Assembly (NCBI RefSeq): GCF_053078305.1 | Contig: NZ_CP166878.1 | DNA: 32,715 nt | Reading direction: 5' to 3' (one strand) | Origin: a plasmid | Shown: in pieces, positions 1,923 through 26,313 of the stretch | Numbering within the stretch: position 1 is the stretch's first letter | Layout: every line of letters starts with the position of its first letter | Position numbers and translations under genes: made by a program | Notes under the pieces: model-generated | The model's database searches: none | Told to the model about the DNA's origin: nothing | The model's input: the letters and a program-made list of their open reading frames with translations, nothing else

Positions 1923-2987
1923 ATGGATAAAAAGACAAAAACATATCCTTTTGGTGACATTGAGTTTTTTGACCAGTTAGAGGAACATGCATGGGACCAG
2001 ATTCATGATGGTATGCTACCAATTATGGATTTGTATCTTGATCCGACAGTAACCGATATATTTATAAACAGGTATGACAATATATATACATCTGTCAATG
2101 GCAAGTATGTAAAGACCGACAGTTCCTTTTCCAGTGAACGGGCACTTAAAGCCTGGATTGATCAAATCGCAACGGTGTTGAGGCAGCCATTTTCAACGTC
2201 AGGAAACTATAAATATGGTGATGTCATTGAGCCTGTACTTGATGCCCGATTTCCCGATGGTTCCCGGTTGATGTGTACAGACCCGGTGATTTCACCGCAG
2301 GGTTCTACGGTAAGTCTTCGTAAAGTACCTAAGCAAATACTGGAAGAAAAAGATTTTATAAATTCCGGTATGTTGACGAGAGATATTCTTGATTATCTCA
2401 TTAGTGTTATACAAAAACGGAAAAATTTTATTGTTGCTGGTAATACTGGTTCTGGCAAAACATCACTTTTACGCTTGCTCGCCAGGTATATTGATACGAT
2501 GGAGCGTGTTATCACCGCCGAAGACACTCAAGAACTTCATATACACAGGTATTTTCCGTTAGGGATTGCTCTGGAAGCTGCACATCGTAAAGATGTGAAT
2601 GCGGATCTTCCTTCTCTGGTTCACCTGACTATGCGTGGTAATCCCGATCGTGTATGGGTTGGGGAGGTAAGAACGGCAGAGGCTATAGCTGCTTATTACA
2701 TGGTTCTGGCAAGTGGAACTATAGGTAATGCTACAACTCTGCACTCCGTTACCCCTATGGGGGCAATACGCAAAATGACCTGGCTTATGTCAAGCTATCT
2801 CAGTATCGATTTTCAGATAGCTCAGGATTTAATTATGTCAGAGGTTGACGTGATTATTCAGTGCCGGAGAACATCAAAGCATGGAAGAAGAATTACAGAT
2901 ATCGTCGAAATACGTGAAGGGAAAATTGTTCCTATATTCAAGTTTGATGAAGAGCAAGAAGTACATGTCAGGTTTGACAAAAAATGA
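1923..2987 (+). CDS. virB11: VirB11-family secretion ATPase
   Basis: 354-aa ORF; Walker A GNTGSGKTS, downstream ITAEDTQEL and conserved His-box region typical of VirB11/TrbB traffic ATPases; ATG at 1923. Confidence 0.9.
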   Translation: MDKKTKTYPFGDIEFFDQLEEHAWDQIHDGMLPIMDLYLDPTVTDIFINRYDNIYTSVNGKYVKTDSSFSSERALKAWIDQIATVLRQPFSTSGNYKYGDVIEPVLDARFPDGSRLMCTDPVISPQGSTVSLRKVPKQILEEKDFINSGMLTRDILDYLISVIQKRKNFIVAGNTGSGKTSLLRLLARYIDTMERVITAEDTQELHIHRYFPLGIALEAAHRKDVNADLPSLVHLTMRGNPDRVWVGEVRTAEAIAAYYMVLASGTIGNATTLHSVTPMGAIRKMTWLMSSYLSIDFQIAQDLIMSEVDVIIQCRRTSKHGRRITDIVEIREGKIVPIFKFDEEQEVHVRFDKK

Positions 2988-3000
2988 ACATTTAGCATTA

Positions 3001-3080
3001 TATGCTTATATGCTTATATGCTTATATGCTTATATGCTTATATGCTTATATGCTTATATGCTTATATGCTTATATGCTTA
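3001..3080. repeat. Perfect tandem octamer microsatellite (TATGCTTA x10)
   Basis: Ten uninterrupted head-to-tail copies of TATGCTTA directly readable in sequence, starting 14 bp after the virB11 stop. Confidence 0.95.
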
Positions 3081-3105
3081 TATCATTGTGTTTGTGTGAA
3101 ATATT

Positions 3106-3299
3106 GCTGTAACATCGACGGTCTACGACCACCTACCACCTGAATAGCTGTAGGTTCCGTGCGGTCAGGCTTGGCAGGGGGCTGACGCGGTTCCTGGCGA
3201 CATGAAACTCCCTGGTTAGGGGTATCGGCGCGACCTGGCATCTGTGACTCTATAAAGCCATTTTTCGCGCCTTCCATGCCGCTAAAGCGGCATATTCCA
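3106..3299 (+). repeat. 194-bp repeat family, copy 1 (upstream of ccdA)
   Basis: Near-identical to 18900-19093 and ~90% identical to 3962-4155; begins GCTGTAACATCGACGGTCTACG and ends with hairpin ATGCCGC-TAAA-GCGGCAT then ATTCCA. Confidence 0.9.
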
Positions 3300-3366
3300 C
3301 ACTTCTAGATCCGGGGTTTTGGGTATATGCTATGTTTATATGCATAATTTATGTGGGGGGCTTGTT

Positions 3367-3612
3367 ATGAGAACAAATGTGGCAGTAAAAAAACGTAGTA
3401 TAAACGTATACTTAAATGCAGGGTTACTTGAAGAAGCAAAAGATCTTGATCTGAATGTTTCTGCTATCTCTAACAAAGCTCTCGAAAAAGCGGTAAGGGA
3501 GCGTAAGCGTGAACGCTGGATAGAAGAAAACCGTGCTGGCATTGAGGCATTAAACCGTTTTGTAGAAGATACCGGGATTTTTTCAGATGATGAAAATTTT
3601 GGGGTAATTTAG
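3367..3612 (+). CDS. ccdA: CcdA-family antitoxin
   Basis: Recognisable similarity to F-plasmid CcdA (VNISxxxxxxxxEARRxRAERWxxEN...FADENRDW pattern: NVSAISNKALEKAVRERKRERWIEENRAGIEALNRFVEDTGIFSDDENFG); ATG 3367 preceded by G-rich RBS; stop overlaps ccdB start. Confidence 0.85.
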   Translation: MRTNVAVKKRSINVYLNAGLLEEAKDLDLNVSAISNKALEKAVRERKRERWIEENRAGIEALNRFVEDTGIFSDDENFGVI

Positions 3613-3929
3613 TGAAACAATTTTCTGTCTACAAGAACAAATCGCGAAATAAACAGGCGTACCCCTATTTTATTGATATACAGGCAGAGATGCTTGCACA
3701 CCTTAACACCCGGTTGGTGATGCCTTTAACGCCAAAAGATAATTCAAACTCGCAGGTAAAGACGTTAACGCCAGTAATAAACATCAACCAGGTAGATTAT
3801 GTGGTTCTGACTACTATGATAACGACAACGGATGCAAAAAATCTGAACTCTGATAATGTCGTTATGGATGCTTCATATTTACGAGATCAACTGGTTTCTG
3901 CAATTGACATGATGATTCTGGGTATTTAA
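3612..3929 (+). CDS. ccdB: CcdB-family gyrase-poison toxin
   Basis: GTG start overlapping the ccdA stop by 1 nt; protein begins MKQFSVYKNKSRNKQAYPYFIDIQ and ends MMILGI, matching the CcdB family pattern ([21 protein letters not shown] ... LMFWGI). Confidence 0.85.
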   Translation: MKQFSVYKNKSRNKQAYPYFIDIQAEMLAHLNTRLVMPLTPKDNSNSQVKTLTPVININQVDYVVLTTMITTTDAKNLNSDNVVMDASYLRDQLVSAIDMMILGI

Positions 3930-3961
3930 TTTTTGCAGGGTAGTAAATAGTAAAAAATATC

Positions 3962-4155
3962 GCTGTAACATCGACGGTCTACGACCACCTACCAGCCGAG
4001 TGGCTGTCTGTTCCGTGCAAATGGGCTTTGCAGGGGGCTGGCGCGGTTCCTGGCGACCTGAAAGCCCCTGGTTAGGGGTATCGGCGCGACCTGGCATCTG
4101 TGACTCTATGAAACCATTTTTCGCGCCTTCCATGCCGCTAAAGCGGCATATTCCA
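3962..4155 (+). repeat. 194-bp repeat family, copy 2 (downstream of ccdB)
   Basis: Same length and ends as copy 1; about 20 substitutions clustered in hairpin-forming segments, several compensatory. Confidence 0.9.
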
Positions 4156-4717: not shown

Positions 4718-4787
4718 TAACGTAAAGATTATAAATATAAATTTTACAAAACGTAAAAATATACTACGTCATTCGGTAAGAAATCAA

Positions 4788-5120
4788 ATGGCTGAAATAA
4801 AAGGAAAAATAACCAATCCCGCACTGGTTAATGCAAAAGTTTTTTACAACAGACGAACAAAGCTGGGGATACCTACAGAGGTCTTTTTGATCCTGATGTT
4901 CCTGAATGTTTTTGCTGTTGTGCTGTGTGTTATGTATTTCAGCACATTTTCCGTTATTTCGCTGATTTTATTTGTTCTGGTATCGGTTGTTCCTATGAAG
5001 TTCGTTTTTCATGGCGATCCCGATGCTCATAAAGCTTGGATTTATGGTTATTTGTCACCTTCCAGGCTGAACAATACCCACGCAGTGAAGCGTCGTATCA
5101 CATTTATAGACGCTATTTAG
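4788..5120 (+). CDS. virB3: VirB3-like small inner-membrane T4SS protein
   Basis: 110 aa, hydrophilic N-terminus then one long hydrophobic region (GIPTEVFLILMFLNVFAVVLCVMYF...); position immediately upstream of pilin and VirB4 genes. Confidence 0.55.
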   Translation: MAEIKGKITNPALVNAKVFYNRRTKLGIPTEVFLILMFLNVFAVVLCVMYFSTFSVISLILFVLVSVVPMKFVFHGDPDAHKAWIYGYLSPSRLNNTHAVKRRITFIDAI

Positions 5121-11996: not shown

Positions 11997-13403
11997 ATGG
12001 AAGAACGTCAGGAGAAAGTAGAAGAAAAACCAGCTACTTACCGTAAAAAAATACAGTATTACGCTTTTGGTACTTTTGGTGTGATCCTGGTAATTCTTTT
12101 TATCAATATGGTGATAAGTATTGCCTCAAGGAACGAGGAAGAACCAAAGGAAAATGCGAAACAGGAAACTGCCAGCACTGCGCCAAATACAACGGAAAAG
12201 TTTAATGCGTTACTGAAAAACAGTGGTGCACGTCCTTCTGCCTCCGTTAATCAGGCTAATACGGTTGGAAATAAGGATAGTGCCAGTAATGGAAATCCGA
12301 ATAGTGAAACAGATAAAAAACCTGTTCACCCTTACAGCCGGGAAAAAGAGGCGTCTCAGGAGAGGGGGGCGAGAGCAAGTGATGCGGGGTCACCTGATGA
12401 AATCAGGGCACGCTTTAAGGCTGATGAGATTAACCGAGCACTGCGTGCCAGGTCAGATAAAACAAATTTTGACAGCACTAAAAATACGGTTGCGGGTAGT
12501 GGTAATGCATATGCCCCGGCAGCATCGTTTACCGGAAACCGGACTAATGCGCAGCGTATCAGCGATATAAACGCAGAGCAGAATGGATTGCAGGAACGTA
12601 TCCAAATGATGGAATCAAAAGTTCGTGCTGATGAAGCCGCTTTGCCTGGACGACTGGAAGAAGCCCGGATACGTGGGGAACAGCAATTTGCAGAAGCCCG
12701 ACAGGGTGGAGCAGGAAGTAACGCGACATCGGTAACTAAGGGGAGTACCCAGAGCGTACCGTCCGGTGTTGTGGGATATACAGCCAGTAATCCTTATGGG
12801 GCAAGTGTTGATGGAATGATGAAGTTGCCAGTAGGTACGGTCCTGAATGCCATTACCACATTTACGGCTATTTCTGATTATTCCGGCGGCTCAATGAAGG
12901 CCATGCTTACGCATGATATCTATGATGCGACGCATAGCTACATTCTTGCGCCTAAAGGAAGTGAGTTCGTTATCAGGGTCGTTAAAGCCTCCCAGGTAAA
13001 CGAAATCCTTCAAAGCCGTATTGGATTCCAGGTTACATGGCTTGTATTGCCTGATGGTAACAGGGTCGATTTTAAAACCTCGTCGTCTCTTGACCGAATG
13101 GGGACTCCGGCGGTTGAAGGCGATGAGGTGGACAGGCATTTGCTCGCTCAGTTTCTTGGCGTAGCGGCCTATGCCCTTGTGGGGACGAAAACCAGCTACG
13201 AAGGCTCAGGTGATAGTAACGAGAGTTTTGCCGGGAATTTTGGCGAAGGCGCTCGTACTCAGGCAGGAAATATCGCTCAAAAATACCTCCAGGTTGTGCC
13301 TACAACAACGTTACATGCGGGAGCACCGATCAGGGTCTTTACCGAAGATGAGATATACATGAAGCCGTGGAGAAATATTTATGAAACGGATTATACGGGC
13401 TGA
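11997..13403 (+). CDS. virB10: VirB10-like protein
   Basis: 468 aa, N-terminal TM, Pro/Glu/Ala-rich linker, C-terminal beta-barrel-like domain. Confidence 0.75.
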   Translation: MEERQEKVEEKPATYRKKIQYYAFGTFGVILVILFINMVISIASRNEEEPKENAKQETASTAPNTTEKFNALLKNSGARPSASVNQANTVGNKDSASNGNPNSETDKKPVHPYSREKEASQERGARASDAGSPDEIRARFKADEINRALRARSDKTNFDSTKNTVAGSGNAYAPAASFTGNRTNAQRISDINAEQNGLQERIQMMESKVRADEAALPGRLEEARIRGEQQFAEARQGGAGSNATSVTKGSTQSVPSGVVGYTASNPYGASVDGMMKLPVGTVLNAITTFTAISDYSGGSMKAMLTHDIYDATHSYILAPKGSEFVIRVVKASQVNEILQSRIGFQVTWLVLPDGNRVDFKTSSSLDRMGTPAVEGDEVDRHLLAQFLGVAAYALVGTKTSYEGSGDSNESFAGNFGEGARTQAGNIAQKYLQVVPTTTLHAGAPIRVFTEDEIYMKPWRNIYETDYTG

Positions 13404-17649: not shown

Positions 17650-17710
17650 CAACCCCCTGATATCTCTCTTAGAGCTTTTGCGGGGCCAAAGAAGATAATC
17701 AGGGGGTCCA
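17650..17710 (+). promoter_or_regulatory. Long stem-loop in repA leader (candidate antisense-RNA target)
   Basis: Arms CCCCCTGATATCTCTCTT / AAGAAGATAATCAGGGGG around an 18-nt loop containing GCCAA (one base off the conserved IncFII/IncB loop hexamer); location upstream of leader peptide and repA. Confidence 0.45.
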
Positions 17711-17743
17711 AAGCAGGCTTTTGCCTGTAAAGGATTATAGCAA

Positions 17744-17800
17744 ATGCATTTTTCAATACAAGACTACTGCCCGGCAATAAGTGCGGGCGGTGGTGGCTGA
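17744..17800 (+). CDS. Leader peptide overlapping repA start (translational coupling candidate)
   Basis: 18-codon ORF MHFSIQDYCPAISAGGGG whose stop lies 17 nt inside repA, the arrangement seen for tap/repY-type leader peptides. Confidence 0.45.
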   Translation: MHFSIQDYCPAISAGGGG

Positions 17801-18506
17801 AAAGAACAATTCCTTAATCCCCCGCATATCGCCGTCAGGGGTGGCCAAACAAAGTCCATGCTATAACGTTGTGTCGCGTAAGCGACGCCGTTTCCTCAAT
17901 CGCTGGATTAAATCGCTGGCGACGGTCGCTGGGCGTGTCAAAATCAAAAACGAACTCCGCCGCCGTATCCGGCATAACCGATATTGGGTTAATGAGGCTA
18001 ACAAGTTTGGCATAGAGGCACTTTGCGAACTGATGTTAGCTATCCTGGATGATCTCGATTTACGCTCCTGGGAAACCAGGCATAACCTCGAAACACTGGC
18101 AGAACGTGCCGGACTGGTGACACGCAGTGACGCGGGGCGTAAATCTATTTCCCGTGCCAGTAGGGGATGTGATCGCCTGGTCTGGTTGAATGCGATCATT
18201 ACAGATAAAGCGCCGTTTAACCCCTATGATGCACGGTGTGCCTGTAAACACATTGAAGTAACCGAAGACTTCTTTGCCATACTCGGCATTCCGTTAAAAC
18301 TGGTTTATCGGGAACGTGCCAGGCTGTTAAAGGCAGATCCTAATGAAATGATTTACTCCGGGGATGCCAGACTGATAGCTATCAGAGTCCAGAACTGGAC
18401 ACGGAAAGCGGCAGCCGGATTAGCCCGGATGAAAGCGAAACGCGACGCAGCTCGACAACGCAAAAAAGAATATTACGCTCACCCACCTACCCCTATTCCG
18501 GTCTGA
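17781..18506 (+). CDS. repA: IncFII-family replication initiator RepA
   Basis: Segment LETLAERAGLVTRSDAGRKSISRASRGCDRLVWLNAIIT aligns with the RepA1 core of R100-type proteins (SITTLAIECGLATESAAGKLSITRATRALTFLSELGLIT); GTG start right after an in-frame stop. Confidence 0.75.
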   Translation: MRAVVAEKNNSLIPRISPSGVAKQSPCYNVVSRKRRRFLNRWIKSLATVAGRVKIKNELRRRIRHNRYWVNEANKFGIEALCELMLAILDDLDLRSWETRHNLETLAERAGLVTRSDAGRKSISRASRGCDRLVWLNAIITDKAPFNPYDARCACKHIEVTEDFFAILGIPLKLVYRERARLLKADPNEMIYSGDARLIAIRVQNWTRKAAAGLARMKAKRDAARQRKKEYYAHPPTPIPV

Positions 18507-18899: not shown

Positions 18900-19093
18900 G
18901 CTGTAACATCGACGGTCTACGACCACCTACCACCTGAATAGCTGTAGGTTCCGTGCGGTCAGGCTTAGCAGGAGGCTGACGCGGTTCCTGGCGACATGAA
19001 ACTCCCTAGTTAGGGGTATCGGCGCGACCTGGCATCTGTGACTCTATAAAGCCATTTTTCGCGCCTTCCATGCCGCTAAAGCGGCATATTCCA
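18900..19093 (+). repeat. 194-bp repeat family, copy 3
   Basis: Differs from copy 1 by only a few substitutions; same orientation; sits between the repA origin region and the next gene. Confidence 0.9.
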
Positions 19094-20221: not shown

Positions 20222-20340
20222 GTAGATAAATGACGTTGCTACGTGGTCTCCCTCTTTTGCTGATTTCACGTAGCACTCTCACTCTGCCGCTACTTCTCGT
20301 TATTCTGAACAGATGATTGAAAAATAAGGAGAATCAAATA

Positions 20341-20379
20341 ATCTCTTGATTTTATAATCCTATGATTATAAGATTGTTG
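20341..20379 (+). promoter_or_regulatory. Operator-like block P1 (CTTGATTTTATAATCCTATGATTATAAGATTGTT)
   Basis: About 85% identical over ~38 bp to 23919-23956 and related to the TGATT-repeat region upstream of parA. Confidence 0.5.
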
Positions 20380-20387
20380 TGTATGAG

Positions 20388-20409
20388 TGTTTGGATAGAG
20401 AATTATTGT
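20388..20409 (+). repeat. GTTTGGATA(TA)GAGAATT motif, copy a
   Basis: One of three direct copies (with 21113-21130 and 22086-22109); this copy lacks the TA dinucleotide. Confidence 0.8.
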
Positions 20410-20431
20410 AATCAAGTGGGAGATATTATTT

Positions 20432-20920
20432 ATGAATAATTTACGTGATAAAAAATCAAATCCTGTTATTACATTAATTGTTGTTGTTATTTCTTTATTC
20501 CTCCTTCCTGCAATCGTCGCGGGACTAGGAACTATGGGAGTGATTTACATTGATGGTCTGCGAGAATTACCGTCTTTTTGTATAAAGGCAATAAGTGTAG
20601 CAATCTGGATGCTTGTAGTTGCATACCTGATGTGTCGTATCATGAAAGCTAAGAAAGATTTTATTCGCTTACCTGCAAAACTGACGCTTATTGGAGCAGT
20701 TCTCTTGCCTCTGATAAGCAGTTTTAATAATGTAGTGACTACTATGTCATCTCCAGATGTTTCCACCAGAACAGACTTTCATGCAGCACTTATAAAAGGT
20801 CTGGACACAATGGAAAGTGAATTTATGTTTATAGTACCTGCTTTATTATGTGCAATAGCTTCCATTATGCTGGCTGTTGGAATGATAAATATTTTACGTA
20901 ATCGTTATATGGGGCGCTAA
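20432..20920 (+). CDS. Hypothetical polytopic membrane protein (162 aa)
   Basis: Several hydrophobic helices; RBS GGGAG; preceded by block P1 and motif copy a. Confidence 0.55.
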   Translation: MNNLRDKKSNPVITLIVVVISLFLLPAIVAGLGTMGVIYIDGLRELPSFCIKAISVAIWMLVVAYLMCRIMKAKKDFIRLPAKLTLIGAVLLPLISSFNNVVTTMSSPDVSTRTDFHAALIKGLDTMESEFMFIVPALLCAIASIMLAVGMINILRNRYMGR

Positions 20921-20955
20921 TCTGATGTGCGGTGATTGTGAGGTTGATTATAGAA

Positions 20956-21127
20956 GGGATTTAATGTGGAACTGATAACAGATAATTTTTTTGAGTGGGT
21001 GGTGGCTCTCGCTATTTTGAATTTTATCGTCACGTTGAAATCTAAAGAGAAAATAACTTTGTTGTTAACGACGATAATTAGCCTACTTATTGCTTCAATT
21101 ATATTGAGGGCAGTTTGGATATAGAGA
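20956..21127 (+). CDS. Possible small membrane protein (56 aa)
   Basis: GTG-start ORF with two hydrophobic stretches; its stop codon lies inside motif copy b; weak call. Confidence 0.25.
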
Positions 21128-21130
21128 ATT
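21113..21130 (+). repeat. GTTTGGATATAGAGAATT motif, copy b
   Basis: Identical core to copy c; shares preceding GGG-CAG context with copy c. Confidence 0.8.
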
Positions 21131-21211
21131 TTACAAAATGAACTGTGCTATTTATCAATATCATTGATAAACACACTCTAATAATCACTCTTTACAGGAA
21201 ATGTACTCACT

Positions 21212-21529
21212 ATGATTATTAATCGAGAAAAATTTGAAATTATCAGAAAAATCATTCATGACACTCTGCTGGGTAATATTGCGCTCGTCGTTATTGCATT
21301 AATGTCTCCGGTTCTGTTAGATAAAATAGCGGAGCCTTTTAATATTATTATAGCTTCCGCCATGTCGATTTCCTTTATATTTATTCTTTGCTGGCTGGCT
21401 TCTTCAATCTGGTTGTACGCAGGAGAACTTGCGAAAAATAAAAGTTTAAGATGTACTCTTTTTATACTATGGGCACTGAGTGCTGAGGGTTCAATTATTT
21501 TAACTGCGAGAGATATTATTTTATGGTAA
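21212..21529 (+). CDS. Hypothetical membrane protein (105 aa)
   Basis: Two to three hydrophobic helices; no family recognised. Confidence 0.5.
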   Translation: MIINREKFEIIRKIIHDTLLGNIALVVIALMSPVLLDKIAEPFNIIIASAMSISFIFILCWLASSIWLYAGELAKNKSLRCTLFILWALSAEGSIILTARDIILW

Positions 21530-21583
21530 TGATCGTGGCGCGATTGCCAGCGAGCTAGGGGTTCCGTGGGAATTTCTGCGATA

Positions 21584-21621
21584 GGGGTTTGAAGCCCAAC
21601 CGTACGAAAACGTACGCTAAG
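21584..21621 (+). mobile_element. Tn1000/Tn3-family 38-bp terminal inverted repeat
   Basis: GGGGTTTGAAGCCCAACCGTACGAAAACGTACGCTAAG, close to the gamma-delta/Tn3 IR consensus (GGGG...ACGAAAAC...ACG.TAAG); a resolvase gene remnant ends 2 bp away. Confidence 0.75.
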
Positions 21622-21622
21622 T

Positions 21623-21862
21623 TCATTTCTTGAACAACCTGGCTGACTCTATGTATTTGTACAGCGTTGGCCTCGATATCCCCATCAACACACAAATCTG
21701 CGCAACGGTATGTTTTTTCTCGTTATAGAGTTGAACAGCAAGGGCCTGTTTATCCTTACTCAGTGTTTTCGGCCTGCCGCCCTTACGTCCTCTGGCTCGT
21801 GCTGCTTGAAGCCCGGCCTGAGTTCTCTGGGGGGTCGCGCCCATTTCCTCTAAAAGTCTCAC
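21623..21862 (-). pseudogene. Serine recombinase (resolvase/invertase) C-terminal HTH fragment
   Basis: 79-aa ORF containing GRKGGRPK...HTVAQICVLMGISRPTLYKY, the C-terminal DNA-binding domain only; the catalytic N-terminal domain is missing. Confidence 0.7.
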
Positions 21863-21885
21863 CTTGCTTAGGTAATTAATTGAAT

Positions 21886-22100
21886 TTATTTATAAAACAT
21901 TGCAATTTTAGCATCATTTTTTATTGTTCTTTTTAACCTGAAGTACGTCGATCGAGAGATACCTGTTTTTTCTGTCACACTGCCCAGAGATTCTCCCTGT
22001 GATATAAGCTCCAACGCTGTAGGCGTTCGTGGATGCTTCTTCCTGCCAAATTTTACGCCTGCGGCAAGTGCCGCTATTGGGGTCAGTTTGGATATAGAGA
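21886..22100 (-). pseudogene. Second recombinase-like HTH fragment (no start codon)
   Basis: Minus-strand frame encodes ...AALAAGVKFGRKKHPRTPTALELISQGESLGSVTEKTGISRSTYFR, resembling a serine-recombinase C-terminus; the frame runs into motif copy c with no initiator. Confidence 0.4.
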
Positions 22101-22109
22101 ATTATTGTA
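22086..22109 (+). repeat. GTTTGGATATAGAGAATTATTGTA motif, copy c
   Basis: Third direct copy; lies at the 5' truncation point of the recombinase-like fragment. Confidence 0.8.
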
Positions 22110-22404
22110 CGGCAAGCCTGTTTTTTGAACAGACTTACCTATCGCGATAGGGTGTACTCCCGTGCTATACGGCGTTTTCAGGGGCTTTGGCCTTAATCGG
22201 ATAACCTAAATGCGACATAGCAAGAGCGATAACTTAAAGGCGATAGCCGCTGATGTTAAATCAATACGTTAGAATCTTAAATTGATTAAATAATGCGCTT
22301 AACGTACAAAAATTTCCGTTTCCCAAACCGCCCCCATATTGTACGTTTCCCTAACCGACCCCTTACTGGTCGCGGAAAAATCCAGGTTTCCGGCCTGGAA
22401 CCCC

Positions 22405-22536
22405 TATACAATCACTTGATTCGATAATTATAAAATTAAGTGATTTTATGATTGCATGATTCTATGAGCATGGGATTATTAGAATGTTTGGCAGAGGTAC
22501 TATGTGAACAAAGGGGAGGGGAAAATGCCTAAAGTT
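22405..22536 (+). repeat. Orphan duplicate of par promoter-operator plus first 4 parA codons
   Basis: About 94% identical over 132 bp to 24844-24975, including RBS and ATGCCTAAAGTT, then diverges; the operator inverted repeat is degenerate in this copy. Confidence 0.85.
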
Positions 22537-22614
22537 GGAGCAGCGGGAGCGTTCGAACAGAGACTTACGGTTTCGTTCTTTGTGCAGCAGTTGAAACCGT
22601 AATTATTTGTTTTA

Positions 22615-22865
22615 GGGGTTTGAGGCTCAGTGGAACAATAACCGCCGTTAAGCGGTCATTTTAAATAGCCAAAAATCAACCAGCCAATTTACATCGTGAA
22701 TCTGCGTTCTTGGCTATCTGTTTTGGGGGGCCAAGTTGGCTTTACTCATCCTGGCCGTTTGCGGAACAAAAGACGTTGTTGATCTCAACAGATTGATTAA
22801 CCTGTTATTGACCATTCAATTGAACCGCTTAACCGCCTTTTGAGTTCCACTACTCCCCAAACCCC
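22615..22865. mobile_element. Miniature Tn3-family element (TIME-like), 251 bp, with 5-bp target-site duplication
   Basis: 38-bp IRs GGGGTTTGAGGCTCAGTGGAACAATAACCGCCGTTAAG (22615-22652) and inverted GGGGTTTGGGGAGTAGTGGAACTCAAAAGGCGGTTAAG (22828-22865); flanked by direct repeat TTTTA on both sides; no ORF inside. Confidence 0.8.
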
Positions 22866-22882
22866 TTTTATGCCAAGTAGAA

Positions 22883-23091
22883 GGGGTTTGAGGGCCAACC
22901 GTACGAAAACGTACGGTAAGAGGAAAATTATCGTCTTAAAAATCGATTAGTAGACAATGCCGTCCGTTAAGTGCCAATTTTCGATTAAAAAGACACCGTT
23001 TTGATGGCGTTTTTCTATGTCCATTATGTTTTGATATATCAGACAGTTACTTCACTAACGTACGTTTTCGTTCCATTGGACTTCAGCCCCC
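22883..23091. mobile_element. Second miniature Tn3-family element (TIME-like), 209 bp, with 5-bp target-site duplication
   Basis: IR GGGGTTTGAGGGCCAACCGTACGAAAACGTACGGTAAG (22883-22920) and an inverted IR at 23054-23091 that contains TGGAACGAAAACGTACGTTA; flanked by TAGAA on both sides. Confidence 0.75.
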
Positions 23092-23111
23092 TAGAATACG
23101 TCAGATGTGTT

Positions 23112-23333
23112 CTACCTAGATTGTAGAGACTGAATTAGTGCTTCTACTGCCCAATCAGGACAGGTTCTGGAGCTTGGTTTATCCGGGTCATTAATCCAGG
23201 AACGGATAGTTCTTACAGAGCATGGTCGGTGAGTGTATTCACAAATTAGGTTCGCGGCTTGCGCCTGGGTTAACCCGTTATCAGTCAGTAACGTTATAAA
23301 TGCGGCACGGTTATCTGACACTATAAACCCCAT
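23112..23333 (-). CDS. Small putative DNA-binding protein (73 aa)
   Basis: HTH-like segment LTQAQAANLICEYTHRPCSVRTIRSWIN; overlaps the end of the upstream membrane-protein gene by 23 nt. Confidence 0.45.
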   Translation of the reverse strand: MGFIVSDNRAAFITLLTDNGLTQAQAANLICEYTHRPCSVRTIRSWINDPDKPSSRTCPDWAVEALIQSLQSR

Positions 23334-23805
23334 CTTTTTTGAACGTAATGCTAACCTGCCCTTCTGTCGGAACCTCCATTACTTCCCGGATCTTTTTATT
23401 TATGGCAATTTCGGTAGCGCTCACAAAGATCGGAATCCCTTTTGCCGCTATGCTGATAGCTACGGCAATAACCGTCAAAGCAATACAGTAGTATGTTATT
23501 ACTCTAATAATTTCAGCTATATTCTCAGAGGGGGAGTTTCTTAGAAATGTTATTAAATGTATTAATTCTGCTTGATGATAAATAGAATAAAACATAATAG
23601 AGGCAATAAATATTGCGAAACCATGAACAAAATAATGCCAGAGTTTAAGGGGTATTCTCCAAGCAAATCCAATGTAACTGAAAACTGAAGCCACATGAGT
23701 TCTCCAGTCTTTTTTTACTGATTTAACTATTTCTTCATATTGTGATATTGGCATTGAGCCGACTTCAATATTATTGACTTTAACTATCGCTATGCCCTCT
23801 TGCAT
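23311..23805 (-). CDS. Hypothetical membrane protein
   Basis: Start placed at the ATG preceded by a consensus AAGGAG RBS (ORF track extends to 23898); three to four hydrophobic helices. Confidence 0.55.
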   Translation of the reverse strand: MQEGIAIVKVNNIEVGSMPISQYEEIVKSVKKDWRTHVASVFSYIGFAWRIPLKLWHYFVHGFAIFIASIMFYSIYHQAELIHLITFLRNSPSENIAEIIRVITYYCIALTVIAVAISIAAKGIPIFVSATEIAINKKIREVMEVPTEGQVSITFKKDGVYSVR

Positions 23806-23918
23806 GACTTTGTTCTCCTTCTGCCATGATAAAAGATCTTGTTTTACATACCATGATAGGCACATGTGCCTGTTTGGTGCAACATGCTTTACAAACATAA
23901 GAATAATAAAAGGATATA

Positions 23919-23956
23919 ATCCCTTGATTTTGTAATCATATGATTATATGATTGTT
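23919..23956 (+). promoter_or_regulatory. Operator-like block P2 in divergent promoter region
   Basis: ATCCCTTGATTTTGTAATCATATGATTATATGATTGTT, homologous to P1 (20341-20379); lies between divergently oriented genes. Confidence 0.5.
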
Positions 23957-23985
23957 TTTGAGCGTGAATTATTCAGGAGGGAGTT

Positions 23986-24261
23986 ATGAGCCAGTATCGT
24001 TTAACAGGAAAATCAGCATCGCGTAGTTATGAACTTCTGGTTGGCTGGGATACCCCGCTTTCCAGGTTTTTTCTTGTTATTGAGCCAGAACTTGACGAGC
24101 CGGTATATTCGAATATTTATGAGAAAGATCCATCATCTTTGACGCTTGAGTTTTTTCAGTCAGTTCTTGAACGTTACGGGATAGAGAATGTATCTCTGCT
24201 GCCTGGTCATGAGTCAGGTTTGTATGAGAAATTGCATGATGATAGAAGAAATAATAACTAG
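23986..24261 (+). CDS. Hypothetical protein (91 aa)
   Basis: Strong AGGAGGGAG RBS; no family recognised. Confidence 0.55.
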   Translation: MSQYRLTGKSASRSYELLVGWDTPLSRFFLVIEPELDEPVYSNIYEKDPSSLTLEFFQSVLERYGIENVSLLPGHESGLYEKLHDDRRNNN

Positions 24262-24293
24262 CGGTTTTTAATGGAATATGCAGGAATATTGCG

Positions 24294-24644
24294 ATGAAAA
24301 TAAAACTAGGGTCAGGTTCGGTATCTGTAAATGGTGTTGTGTATGAAGGAAAGGGGAAAATTATTTCCATATTAAATAATGAAGTCATTATTGATGGTGT
24401 CGTTCATGGGAAAGCCGTAGCTCTTCCTGAAATTACTGTTATTGTTAATGGTCATGTTGATTCATTACATACCGAGTTGGGAAATATAATCATTAATGGT
24501 AATGCTGGTATGGTTAAAACTGCATCGGGGGATGTTTCTTGTGAAAATGTTTCAGGAAATGTTGAGTCTATGAGTGGTAATGTTAATTGTAAAAATGTTT
24601 ATGGTGGAGTTAAAACATTATCTGGAAACATATATAAAGAATGA
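24294..24644 (+). CDS. Repetitive beta-strand protein (bactofilin-like?)
   Basis: 116 aa with recurring V/I-x-G-x-V and SGNV motifs typical of beta-helical repeat proteins; the bactofilin assignment is a guess. Confidence 0.45.
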   Translation: MKIKLGSGSVSVNGVVYEGKGKIISILNNEVIIDGVVHGKAVALPEITVIVNGHVDSLHTELGNIIINGNAGMVKTASGDVSCENVSGNVESMSGNVNCKNVYGGVKTLSGNIYKE

Positions 24645-24843
24645 GTTCATTAAAACCCCGTACAATATATTGTACGGGGGTAGTACAGAAGAGGTATTGG
24701 GTTGCTACATTTCCAGGTTATATGCAGAAACCATTTTTATTTTATCAGGTATTTATTTTTTCTTAATGAGATAGTTCACAAAATCATCAATCCAGGGACT
24801 GTTTTTCGTTATCTGCCGTATCTGCGTACCCCTGATTTTTTGG

Positions 24844-24963
24844 TATACAATCACTTGATTCGATAATCATAAAATCAAGTGATTTTATGATTGCATAATT
24901 TTATGAGTATGAGATTATTAGAATGTTTGGCAGAGGTACTATGTGAACAAAGGGGAGGGGCAA
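24844..24963 (+). promoter_or_regulatory. par promoter-operator (candidate centromere/operator)
   Basis: Perfect 12-bp inverted repeat AATCACTTGATT ... AATCAAGTGATT plus reiterated TGATT motifs directly upstream of parA. Confidence 0.6.
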
Positions 24964-25587
24964 ATGCCTAAAGTTATAGCATTTTTAAATGGTAAGGGGG
25001 GGGTGTCTAAGACAACCTCGGCAGTCAATATTGCTACTGCTCTTGCTCGTAAGGGATACAAAGTTGTCGTTGTGGATACCGATCCTCAGGGAAGTGTTAG
25101 TAACTGGTATGATGACAGTAAGTGTGTTTTTGATGTAGCAGAAGCTACGACAGAAAAAGAAATTTACCGTTTGCGGAAGGCGCTTCCTTTGCACGATTTT
25201 ATCATTATTGATGGTGCTGCGGCGATTTCGGCGATATCGGCAGCTGCTGTTATGGTTTCTGATCTTGTCATTATCCCAGTTACTCCTTCGCCGCTTGATT
25301 TTGCTGCATGTGGCGCGATATTGGCAGTGATAGAAGCTCGGCAGGATTTACGCCCGGTGATTGCTCGCTTTTTGATTACTAAAAAAGTACAGCAAACGCA
25401 TATGCTATCTTTGCTGAAAGAATCTATTGCAGAAACAAGCATACCAGCATTAAAAACAGGAACGTCGTACAGGCAGTCATATATAAAGTCTATGCTAGAT
25501 GGTGGTACTATATTTGATACAAAAGATAGTGCTGCTAAAGGTGAAATATCAGTCATTACAGAAGAAATACTTGGACTATTAAAATGA
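24964..25587 (+). CDS. parA: ParA-family partition ATPase (ParF-like)
   Basis: Deviant Walker [19 protein letters not shown]; ATG 24964 with GGGGAGGGG RBS (ORF track begins at upstream GTG 24943). Confidence 0.9.
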
Positions 25588-25793
25588 GTAAAATGAAACT
25601 TGGGAATCATAAGGCAACAAACACCGCTCTGGATGCACTAAAGAAACCTGCTGGAGCAACCAGGAAATTACAAATGAATATTCCAGAAGAGTTACACCTT
25701 GCATTTAAGTTAGCTTGTGTGGAAGATGGTGTCGATATGACACAGGTAAATATAGAACTAATTCAAAACTGGTTGAAGAGTCGTAACTTATAG
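25584..25793 (+). CDS. ParG-like ribbon-helix-helix centromere-binding protein
   Basis: 69 aa; start overlaps parA stop; C-terminal region [39 protein letters not shown] resembles ParG of TP228 as remembered. Confidence 0.65.
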
Positions 25794-25821: not shown

Positions 25822-26313
25822 ATGGAGTATACACCAATAGCGTTAAGTCCAGGAGCTATGTTGCATAAAGGGAAATTCATTGGTTATGTCATGAAGATCA
25901 GATTTTCCGAGTGTTCTGGAGATCATCTTTTTTATTTGAGATATGATATGGTTGTTGAACTTGCAAGAGCATTAGCAAGAAAAACACACCAGATGTATCT
26001 TAAAGGGACTTTTAGTACAGATGAAAGTAGTCAGGCTACGTTAGAAATGGAAAAGGATTATAAGCAGCATGATATTCATTTAACAAGTGATGAAATATCG
26101 TCACCATCTGTAAATAACTTTGTTGCATTGTTAGATTATAATGTAAGGGATGCATCATTATTATTATCACTAATCAAAAATGATAATTCTAAAATTGATA
26201 TTAGTATACCAGAAGCAGCGGTGGAAATATTTACAGGTTATATGATGAATACTGTTATTAAGGCAGGGGGAGAAGCTTTATCTGAAAAACTTATATCAGA
26301 TATTGGAGTTTAA
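25822..26313 (+). CDS. Hypothetical protein (163 aa)
   Basis: ORF with GGAGG RBS; no family recognised. Confidence 0.5.
   Translation: MEYTPIALSPGAMLHKGKFIGYVMKIRFSECSGDHLFYLRYDMVVELARALARKTHQMYLKGTFSTDESSQATLEMEKDYKQHDIHLTSDEISSPSVNNFVALLDYNVRDASLLLSLIKNDNSKIDISIPEAAVEIFTGYMMNTVIKAGGEALSEKLISDIGV

Follow-up and report, generated by a model that had tools for sequence, protein, structure and literature searches.

Phased GATT boxes of the ParG type at the par operator and at two further predicted promoters of an Escherichia coli plasmid

Background

The ribbon-helix-helix (RHH) protein ParG of plasmid TP228 is the model for a protein that is both a centromere binder and an autorepressor. KorB of the IncP-1 plasmid RK2/RP4 is a partition-associated DNA-binding protein that has been reused as a repressor of several operons, with their coordinated release in a new host; it is a large helix-turn-helix (HTH) protein of the ParB family, recognises a 13-bp palindrome at about a dozen sites over replication, transfer and maintenance operons, and acts with KorA and at a distance. 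The subject here is a pair of similar blocks, blocks 1 and 2, that precede unrelated small genes on an Escherichia coli plasmid (contig NZ_CP166878.1), and their relation to the operator of its parA-parG partition (par) operon. The stretch analysed is 32,715 nt long and is referred to as the window; all positions are counted within it. A first-pass annotation of the window had described the blocks as about 85% identical, had pointed to TGATT motifs shared with the par operator, and had proposed that several promoters, par included, answer to one repressor in a plasmid-wide regulon of the KorA/KorB kind, with a ParG-like protein and a small HTH protein as candidates. The analysis makes it probable that the blocks are operators of the ParG type, which the plasmid's ParG homologue would coat so as to co-repress two cargo operons together with par.

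Details of site recognition are available for several relatives of this protein. TP228 ParG reads degenerate ACTC tetramers that may be direct or inverted and are separated by AT-rich spacers of invariably 4 bp, and it binds cooperatively, one dimer per box, to the 8 boxes of the OF operator and the 12 boxes of parH (PMC3130281). Which tetramer is read depends on a ribbon of eight residues, KRVNVNFD in the case of TP228, and the helical scaffold fixes the spacing at 4 bp (PMC3413123); ParG-Yp and ParG-As read GA[C/T]A and CAT[T/G] boxes, respectively (Zampini and Hayes 2012, PMC3413123). The omega protein of pSM19035 (Inc18) is likewise an RHH protein that binds as one dimer per short repeat in either orientation, and its arrays overlap several promoters and act as operators as well as centromeres (PMC9499535). 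No report of control of non-partition promoters by the ParG family was found in the open-access literature, in which ParG of TP228 is described only at its own locus.

Structure and distribution of the arrays

Alignment of the two blocks by a repeat finder (20338-20378 against 23916-23956) gave 37 identical positions out of 41, i.e. 90% over 41 nt; the coordinates of the first-pass annotation hold and the identity lies slightly above its figure. The degenerate consensus drawn up in that annotation has two exact matches in the window, which are the blocks, with no further match at up to 3 mismatches and none in 100 dinucleotide-preserving shuffles, a test that is partly circular since the consensus was taken from the two blocks themselves. 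An independent scan was therefore of more use, in which GATT/AATC tetramers in 8-bp phase were counted over five boxes at a time, with thresholds of at least three and at least four. At the lower threshold phased arrays were found at 20332-20375, 22410-22485, 23918-23953 and 24849-24924 and nowhere else in the 32,715 bases; at the higher there were nine overlapping matches, against none in 300 first-order Markov resamples. The motif search of the whole plasmid that had been suggested earlier thus returns the two blocks together with the par operator and a decayed copy of that operator, and nothing beyond them.

All four are built of GATT/AATC boxes at a strict 8-bp period, each unit consisting of a 4-bp box (GATT or its complement AATC) and a 4-bp, mostly A/T spacer, with the box orientation mixed. 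In 8-nt register block 1 reads AGAATCAA ATAATCTC TTGATTTT ATAATCCT ATGATTAT AAGATTGT, block 2 reads ATAATCCC TTGATTTT GTAATCAT ATGATTAT ATGATTGT, and the par operator reads ACAATCAC TTGATTCG ATAATCAT AAAATCAA GTGATTTT ATGATTGC ATAATTTT ATGAGTAT GAGATTAT TAGAATGT. The core pattern AATC GATT AATC GATT GATT is common to both blocks, and the par array is mixed too. The last five boxes of block 1 are kept in all related plasmids, the first being AATT in most of them. Fourteen of the 16 bases in the block 1 spacers TCTT, TTAT, CTAT and ATAA are A or T, with a similar composition in block 2. A perfect 14-bp palindrome in block 2, TAATCATATGATTA, consists of two boxes in inverted orientation; block 1 has a one-mismatch version of it.

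The repeat finder grouped the blocks in one family with the par operator (24847-24927) and with the copy of it at 22408-22488, the identity being 66-71% and the registers offset by 8 nt. The resemblance to the par operator that had been noticed through TGATT is therefore real and comprises the same boxes, the same phasing and a homology that continues into the leader; since the blocks are phased boxes, the TGATT motif is one face of the array. Because recognition unit and phasing are the same, it is plausible that a single protein reads both blocks and the par operator, and to this extent the proposal of a single repressor for several promoters including par appears likely in silico. A plasmid-wide regulon was too broad a claim. 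All arrays are confined to one 4.6-kb segment (20332-24926), and the scan of the whole window found none near the RepA gene (17781-18506) or the PK-repBA element (17651-17778) and, even at three phased boxes out of five, none at the rep, type IV secretion, ccdAB or higBA-like genes. A sensitive blastn search with each block against 72,556 plasmids returned only a 10-member plasmid family, with the single exception of a partial leader match in pMS20659.

The ParG homologue and the box it would read

The par operon encodes a small Walker ATPase of the ParA/ParF type and, after it, a 69-aa RHH protein, residues 3-66 of which align to residues 12-74 of the TP228 ParG structure 1P94. Its only Pfam matches were ParG and RHH_10, and the omega-repressor family was not returned. 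The ribbon of this protein, RKLQMNIP, aligns with KRVNVNFD of TP228 ParG.

Ten ParG loci, including plasmids of other genera, were examined for covariation of ribbon and box by inspection of the 220 nt that precede each parA. Boxes of GATT/AATC with an 8-bp period were found at five of the five loci with the ribbon (R/K)KLQ(M/T)NI, namely the window, an E. coli IncF plasmid, and plasmids of Pantoea, Serratia and Erwinia (pJE01), whose ParG proteins are 60%, 61% and 52% identical, respectively. At the four loci with the ribbon KRVNVNF the top phased tetramer was ACTC in two, and ACTC/GAGT boxes were read in the sequence of the other two; one protein of this class has what we take to be the sequence of TP228 ParG. 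Neither GATT/AATC nor ACTC/GAGT boxes were present at the one locus with KRFIMNI, from Arsenophonus. The spacers differ greatly among the GATT-class arrays, with eight tandem GGATTACA units in Pantoea for example, and AT-rich spacers are not universal in the subfamily, as diverged relatives carry ACAG or CTGG. Since the GATT box is shared across backbones with nothing else in common, it can be tied to the (R/K)KLQ(M/T)NI subfamily of ParG. This covariation is the strongest argument, at the level of sequence comparison, that ParG and not another protein would be the reader of blocks 1 and 2, and it makes the 69-aa homologue the best candidate for a protein that recognises GATT/AATC boxes. Of the two regulators put forward earlier, the ParG-like protein thus stands as a plausible one, being a ParG homologue whose box type appears to track the ribbon across homologues.

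Comparison with known systems

Every feature of a ParG-type site that can be tested is found in the window: the 8-bp period, AT-rich spacers, boxes in both orientations, a cognate ParG and a ParF-type ATPase on the same replicon, and covariation of ribbon and box. The likeness to the ParG/OF/parH system of TP228 extends to a homologous RHH protein (Pfam ParG, PDB 1P94) encoded after a small ParA/ParF ATPase and to arrays of degenerate tetramers with invariable 4-bp AT-rich spacers and direct and inverted boxes over the par promoter. The differences are that the window has the box GATT/AATC with the ribbon RKLQMNIP where TP228 has ACTC with KRVNVNFD, that it is without a separate 12-box parH array beside par, and that it has two further five-box arrays at non-partition promoters, which lie 0.9 and 4.5 kb upstream, distances that become 0.9 and 2.5 kb in relatives that lack the insertion described below. 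With ParG-Yp and ParG-As the locus shares the principle that the ribbon sets the tetramer and the scaffold the 4-bp spacing, and in both cases phased tetramers were sought upstream of a parF homologue; here, however, the box is GATT and the ribbon KLQMNI, and the arrays extend to non-par promoters.

The closest working analogue of the arrangement is omega of pSM19035 and not KorA/KorB, although the window protein is not a member of the omega family. As in pSM19035, arrays of at least five units (three arrays and a decayed copy) lie over the predicted promoters of three operons. The omega site is a heptad of 7 bp, WATCACW, repeated without a spacer in 7-10 units, whereas the window has an 8-bp period and 5-10 boxes; omega controls copS (copy number) and a toxin-antitoxin operon, whereas the arrays of the window are absent from such genes and their extra targets are small genes without a family; and the window protein matches Pfam ParG and belongs to a Gram-negative host. 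Membership of the KorA/KorB kind, as first proposed, was rejected because neither the protein nor the spread of its sites fits: the candidate has 69 aa, is of the RHH type and would read phased tetramers at three or four clustered sites directly over promoters, and is not a ParB-type HTH protein on a long palindrome, its arrays all fall within 4.6 kb with none at rep, type IV secretion or toxin-antitoxin genes, and no ParB-family gene was present in the annotation tables of the related plasmids.

Promoters, leaders and controlled genes

The five boxes of each block cover the -35 and -10 hexamers and the spacer of a predicted promoter (Table 1), whose transcript would start near 20381, about 50 nt (block 1), or near 23959, about 27 nt (block 2), upstream of an ATG with a good Shine-Dalgarno sequence. 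At par the single match of the promoter scanner was TTGGTA-16-GATAAT (24840-24867); homology to the blocks would instead indicate ATGATT-17-TGAGAT, a poor match. The homology of the four modules runs past the array into the leader (GA[A/G]TGTTTGG..AG.G...GGGAG), the par leader being homologous to that of block 1, and because the alignment extends in this way the modules are best seen as paralogous promoter-operator-leader cassettes.

Block 1 precedes three open reading frames (ORFs) on the same strand that encode mostly hydrophobic products (162, 52 and 105 aa). Searches of NCBIfam, PADLOC and Pfam gave no family for the genes downstream of either block, apart from a sub-threshold DUF4097 match of the 116-aa protein. 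The YjeJ-family gene, which begins 28 nt downstream of parG, probably belongs to the par transcript.

Table 1. Features of the array region and of one related par operon (positions in the window unless another plasmid is named)
Feature	Position	Strand	Description
Block 1 array	20332-20375	+	Six phased boxes AATC, AATC, GATT, AATC, GATT, GATT at 20332, 20340, 20348, 20356, 20364, 20372
Sigma-70-like promoter in block 1 (predicted)	20346-20374	+	TTGATT (20346-20351), 17-nt spacer, TAAGAT (20369-20374); 8/12 to consensus
162-aa predicted membrane protein	20432-20920	+	First gene after block 1; without family match
52-aa hydrophobic ORF	20966-21124	+	Conserved in relatives
105-aa predicted membrane protein	21212-21529	+	Found in some relatives only
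Mosaic insertion between the two cargo operons	21562-23893 (approx.)		Window-specific, absent from relatives
Decayed par operator duplicate	22405-22542	+	93% identical; operator, leader and first four parA codons
Block 2 array	23918-23953	+	Five phased boxes AATC, GATT, AATC, GATT, GATT at 23918, 23926, 23934, 23942, 23950
Sigma-70-like promoter in block 2 (predicted)	23924-23952	+	TTGATT, 17-nt spacer, TATGAT; 9/12, called by promoter scanner
91-aa protein	23986-24261	+	First gene after block 2; without family match
116-aa repetitive protein	24294-24644	+	Sole family match sub-threshold, DUF4097 (E=0.011)
par operator array	24847-24926	+	Ten phased boxes AATC, GATT, AATC, AATC, GATT, GATT, AATT, GAGT, GATT, GAAT at 24849-24921
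ParA/ParF-type small Walker ATPase, 207 aa	24964-25587	+	NF041546 ParA_partition, E=5e-51, 173 bits against a cutoff of 180
ParG homologue, 69 aa, RHH	25584-25793	+	Pfam PF09274, E=1.7e-11; PDB 1P94, E=3e-7
YjeJ-family gene	25822-26313	+	Downstream of parG
par operon of pEC14_35	2246-4126	-	ParA/MipZ-like gene, 94-aa gene, 160-aa homologue of the 162-aa protein, two more small genes

Conservation in related plasmids

The window plasmid belongs to a family of E. coli plasmids of about 30 kb with a VirB-type secretion system and two rep genes. Blocks 1 and 2 and the par array, and no others, recur in every related plasmid examined. Across eight plasmids no change was seen in any of the ten core boxes of the two blocks, all five of the variable positions falling in spacers (Fisher p=0.027). 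Block 1 is also about 97% identical ahead of two allele classes of the 162-aa gene (99% and 79% amino acid identity). It occurs in 12 of 20,395 E. coli complete-genome records, and parG of the window type was present in 12 of these 12; the co-occurrence, to which there is no counter-example, arises by linkage.

Several plasmids offer natural controls. In pMS20659, which is without a ParG of the window type, the homologous upstream gene, intergenic region and leader are kept, now before a ClbS/DfsB gene, and the sequence is short of exactly 24 bp, corresponding to three array units including the -35 hexamer. The IncX3 plasmid pEC14_35 has a 72% homologue (160 aa) of the 162-aa protein among the genes of its par operon, where the repeats upstream differ from those of the window (CTTTACA/TAAAGACAC); a membrane protein of this type therefore travels with partition operons in two unrelated backbones, which is an independent link between the 162-aa gene and partition control.

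Arrangements at the arrays also vary. In CP088440.1 (3008-3812) the 162-aa gene breaks off after codon 70 and runs straight into the 116-aa gene, in NZ_AP046548.1 (21945-22033) block 1 stands about 150 bp from parA with the DNA between the arrays deleted or fused, and in NZ_AP042589.1 (15561-15614) the DNA between arrays is again deleted or fused. The repeated modules seem to act as, or to adjoin, recombination end points in these relatives. Among the more distant plasmids of the same ribbon class, Erwinia pJE01 has 22 tandem GGGATTCT units (4723-4894) 350-520 bp upstream of parA, the Pantoea plasmid a four-box GATT array immediately downstream of parG (41635-41662), and the Serratia plasmid a four-box array immediately after parG (12356-12391), between the 3' ends of convergent genes. 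The presence of arrays both upstream and downstream of par in Pantoea and Serratia presumably resembles parC1 and parC2 of pB171.

In the window itself the two cargo operons are separated by a mosaic insertion that carries Tn3-family 38-mers resembling inverted repeats (IRs) at 21583, 22614 and 22882, a C-terminal resolvase fragment on the minus strand (21623-21862), a 214-bp IR-bounded element (22878-23091) that is also found in CP088859, the decayed duplicate of the par operator, and a 73-aa HTH gene (23112-23333, minus strand) with a neighbouring 195-aa membrane gene, also on the minus strand. The homology of the relatives picks up again at 23894, 24 nt ahead of the first box of block 2, and the insertion is context and not part of the conserved array system. 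The small HTH protein had been named as a candidate regulator and was rejected, since it sits in this window-specific insertion and no homologue of it was found in the relatives that keep both blocks; the same search found none of the 195-aa membrane gene either. The par operator duplicate was not seen in the related plasmids examined. It retains about seven usable boxes in 22410-22485, drives only a 26-codon stub and is cut short by transposon debris; with so many boxes kept it could titrate ParG, act as a decoy or provide an extra centromere or binding site.

Proposed mechanism and alternatives

From the anatomy of the sites, their exclusivity in the plasmid, their conservation, the homology to ParG and the covariation of ribbon and box we infer binding by ParG, repression, the operon structure and a physiological rationale. 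Each block would place five contiguous boxes exactly over the -35 and -10 of a predicted promoter reading into a small operon. One dimer of the 69-aa ParG would be expected per box, with cooperative binding, so that the blocks would be coated like the ten-box par array. Since -35, -10 and the spacer between them are all overlapped by boxes, coating would exclude RNA polymerase from both cargo promoters. If ParG represses its own operon its level would be self-limiting, and the cargo operons would consequently be held at a set low level; they would be released jointly with par wherever ParG is lacking or has been diluted, for instance just after transfer into a new cell. Because the three modules are paralogous, the regulon probably arose by copying of the par control region ahead of other genes.

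A number of observations weigh against this interpretation. The block 1 promoter was recognised by inspection and from its homology with block 2; it falls below the scanner threshold of 9 and was not called. AT-rich 8-bp arrays with TTGATT and TATGATT units look promoter-like by construction, and as three 8-bp units span about the distance from -35 to -10 the overlap with promoters is weaker evidence than is apparent. The comparison of boxes with spacers is small, with five substitutions within a close lineage, and as family members are 96-99% identical both conservation and co-occurrence mostly reflect shared descent. The boxes of the par operator do vary among relatives, from GATT to AATT at three positions, with no box-specific conservation, and the argument from box conservation is for this reason limited to the short arrays; tolerance of G-to-A changes in the long array would fit the degenerate boxes known from TP228. 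Lastly, GATT arrays of this ParG subfamily are not always operators, since the second array of Serratia cannot be the operator of a promoter.

That last point bears on the best of the alternatives, according to which the arrays are auxiliary centromere sites of the parH kind only, without a transcriptional role, so that their position at promoters is incidental and bound ParG recruits or stimulates ParA and enlarges the partition complex. TP228 has its separate 12-box parH array, and its operator alone is also centromere-active (PMC3130281); in pSM19035 at least four contiguous repeats are enough to activate ParA (PMC9499535), and each of the two blocks has five. Extra arrays away from promoters occur in relatives with the same ribbon (Serratia, Pantoea and Erwinia pJE01), and the window plasmid family is without a separate long parH-like array beside par. 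Centromere function is compatible with an operator role, and by analogy with the related RHH system, in which four or more contiguous units suffice, the blocks may double as auxiliary centromere sites. Centromere function alone is nevertheless unlikely: both arrays lie precisely over -35/-10 hexamers, the distance to the start codon is a usual one, the homologous module extends to a transcribed leader that a pure centromere would not need, and arrays of five boxes would be weak centromeres judging by the TP228 deletion series (PMC3130281).

It is quite unlikely that the blocks are simply paralogous copies of one constitutive promoter cassette, spread by duplication or recombination and unbound by any plasmid regulator. 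The alignment of three modules through the leader would be expected under this scheme, as would the use of the same leader for an unrelated ClbS/DfsB gene in pMS20659; and since the end points of deletions and fusions in CP088440.1, NZ_AP046548.1 and NZ_AP042589.1 sit at arrays, the blocks do appear to act as recombination substrates. Descent, however, fails to explain strictly phased boxes that match the box upstream of parA at loci with 52-61% identical ParGs and wholly different spacers, and it fails to explain why all variation in blocks 1 and 2 spares the boxes.

It is highly improbable that another regulator (the 73-aa HTH protein, another HTH protein or antitoxin of the plasmid, or a host protein, a KorA/KorB-style circuit being one version) reads the blocks through TAATCATATGATTA. 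In favour of such a reader, this palindrome, perfect in one block and nearly so in the other, has the classic shape of an HTH-dimer site, and the window has an HTH gene not far from block 2. Against it, the palindrome is no more than an inverted pair of boxes, and its phasing carries on for five or six further units. The HTH gene is missing, together with its neighbour, from all complete relatives that keep both blocks, and the two lie in an insertion with its right end at 23893. No protein of the ParB/KorB type turned up in the tables of ORFs and annotations consulted for the relatives, and none of the arrays is near rep or transfer genes.

A more far-reaching version of the ParG-operator interpretation can be put forward, in which the operator-promoter-leader module is a portable adapter that places arbitrary cargo under ParG, serves, through its near-identical copies, as a recombination substrate for cassette swaps, fusions and deletions, and makes up a small cassette platform coupled to partition, with a distributed centromere function. 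The position of block 1 before alleles that are 79% identical, the presence of the same leader before ClbS/DfsB in pMS20659 and the deletions of relatives that begin or end at arrays are compatible with such an adapter, an idea that is nevertheless unlikely.

Other repeats of the plasmid

A perfect tandem array of the octamer TTATATGC, in 10-11 copies, lies at 2998-3085 just after a VirB11/TadA-like ATPase gene. It has the same 8-bp period as the ParG sites but is without a GATT box, and as its copy number differs among relatives (3, 8, 10 and 17) it is an 8-bp variable number tandem repeat. A GC-rich repeat of about 195 nt occurs in three copies that are 91-98% identical (3106-3299, 3962-4155 and 18900-19093), two of them upstream of ccdA and of a gene annotated CcgAII in relatives. 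It is reminiscent of the CUP repeats of IncN plasmids or of single-strand promoter elements of leading regions (single-stranded DNA fold z=-2.4), and is a second, independent case on this plasmid of a shared block upstream of unrelated genes. The sole match in an Rfam scan of the window, which returned nothing at the blocks, was the PK-repBA pseudoknot (86 bits, E=4e-18), which immediately precedes the RepA ORF; this match indicates replication control of the IncB/K/I antisense-RNA type.

Implications

What is new here, the combination of a GATT box with its ribbon class and the presence of arrays at non-par promoters, is a modest extension of a known mechanism, and its practical importance is modest as plasmids of this family are uncommon, with 12-16 among 20,395 E. 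coli records. If the interpretation is correct, the code that relates ribbon to box would gain a new entry, this ribbon class paired with GATT, backed by five independent loci, and the copying of a par control cassette would offer a simple evolutionary path to plasmid regulons. Four or five uncharacterised small genes would be flagged as likely to have maintenance or establishment functions, and the ParG homologue would run a small regulon that ties the expression of cargo to partition, as omega does in the Inc18 plasmids of Gram-positive hosts and KorB in IncP-1 plasmids.

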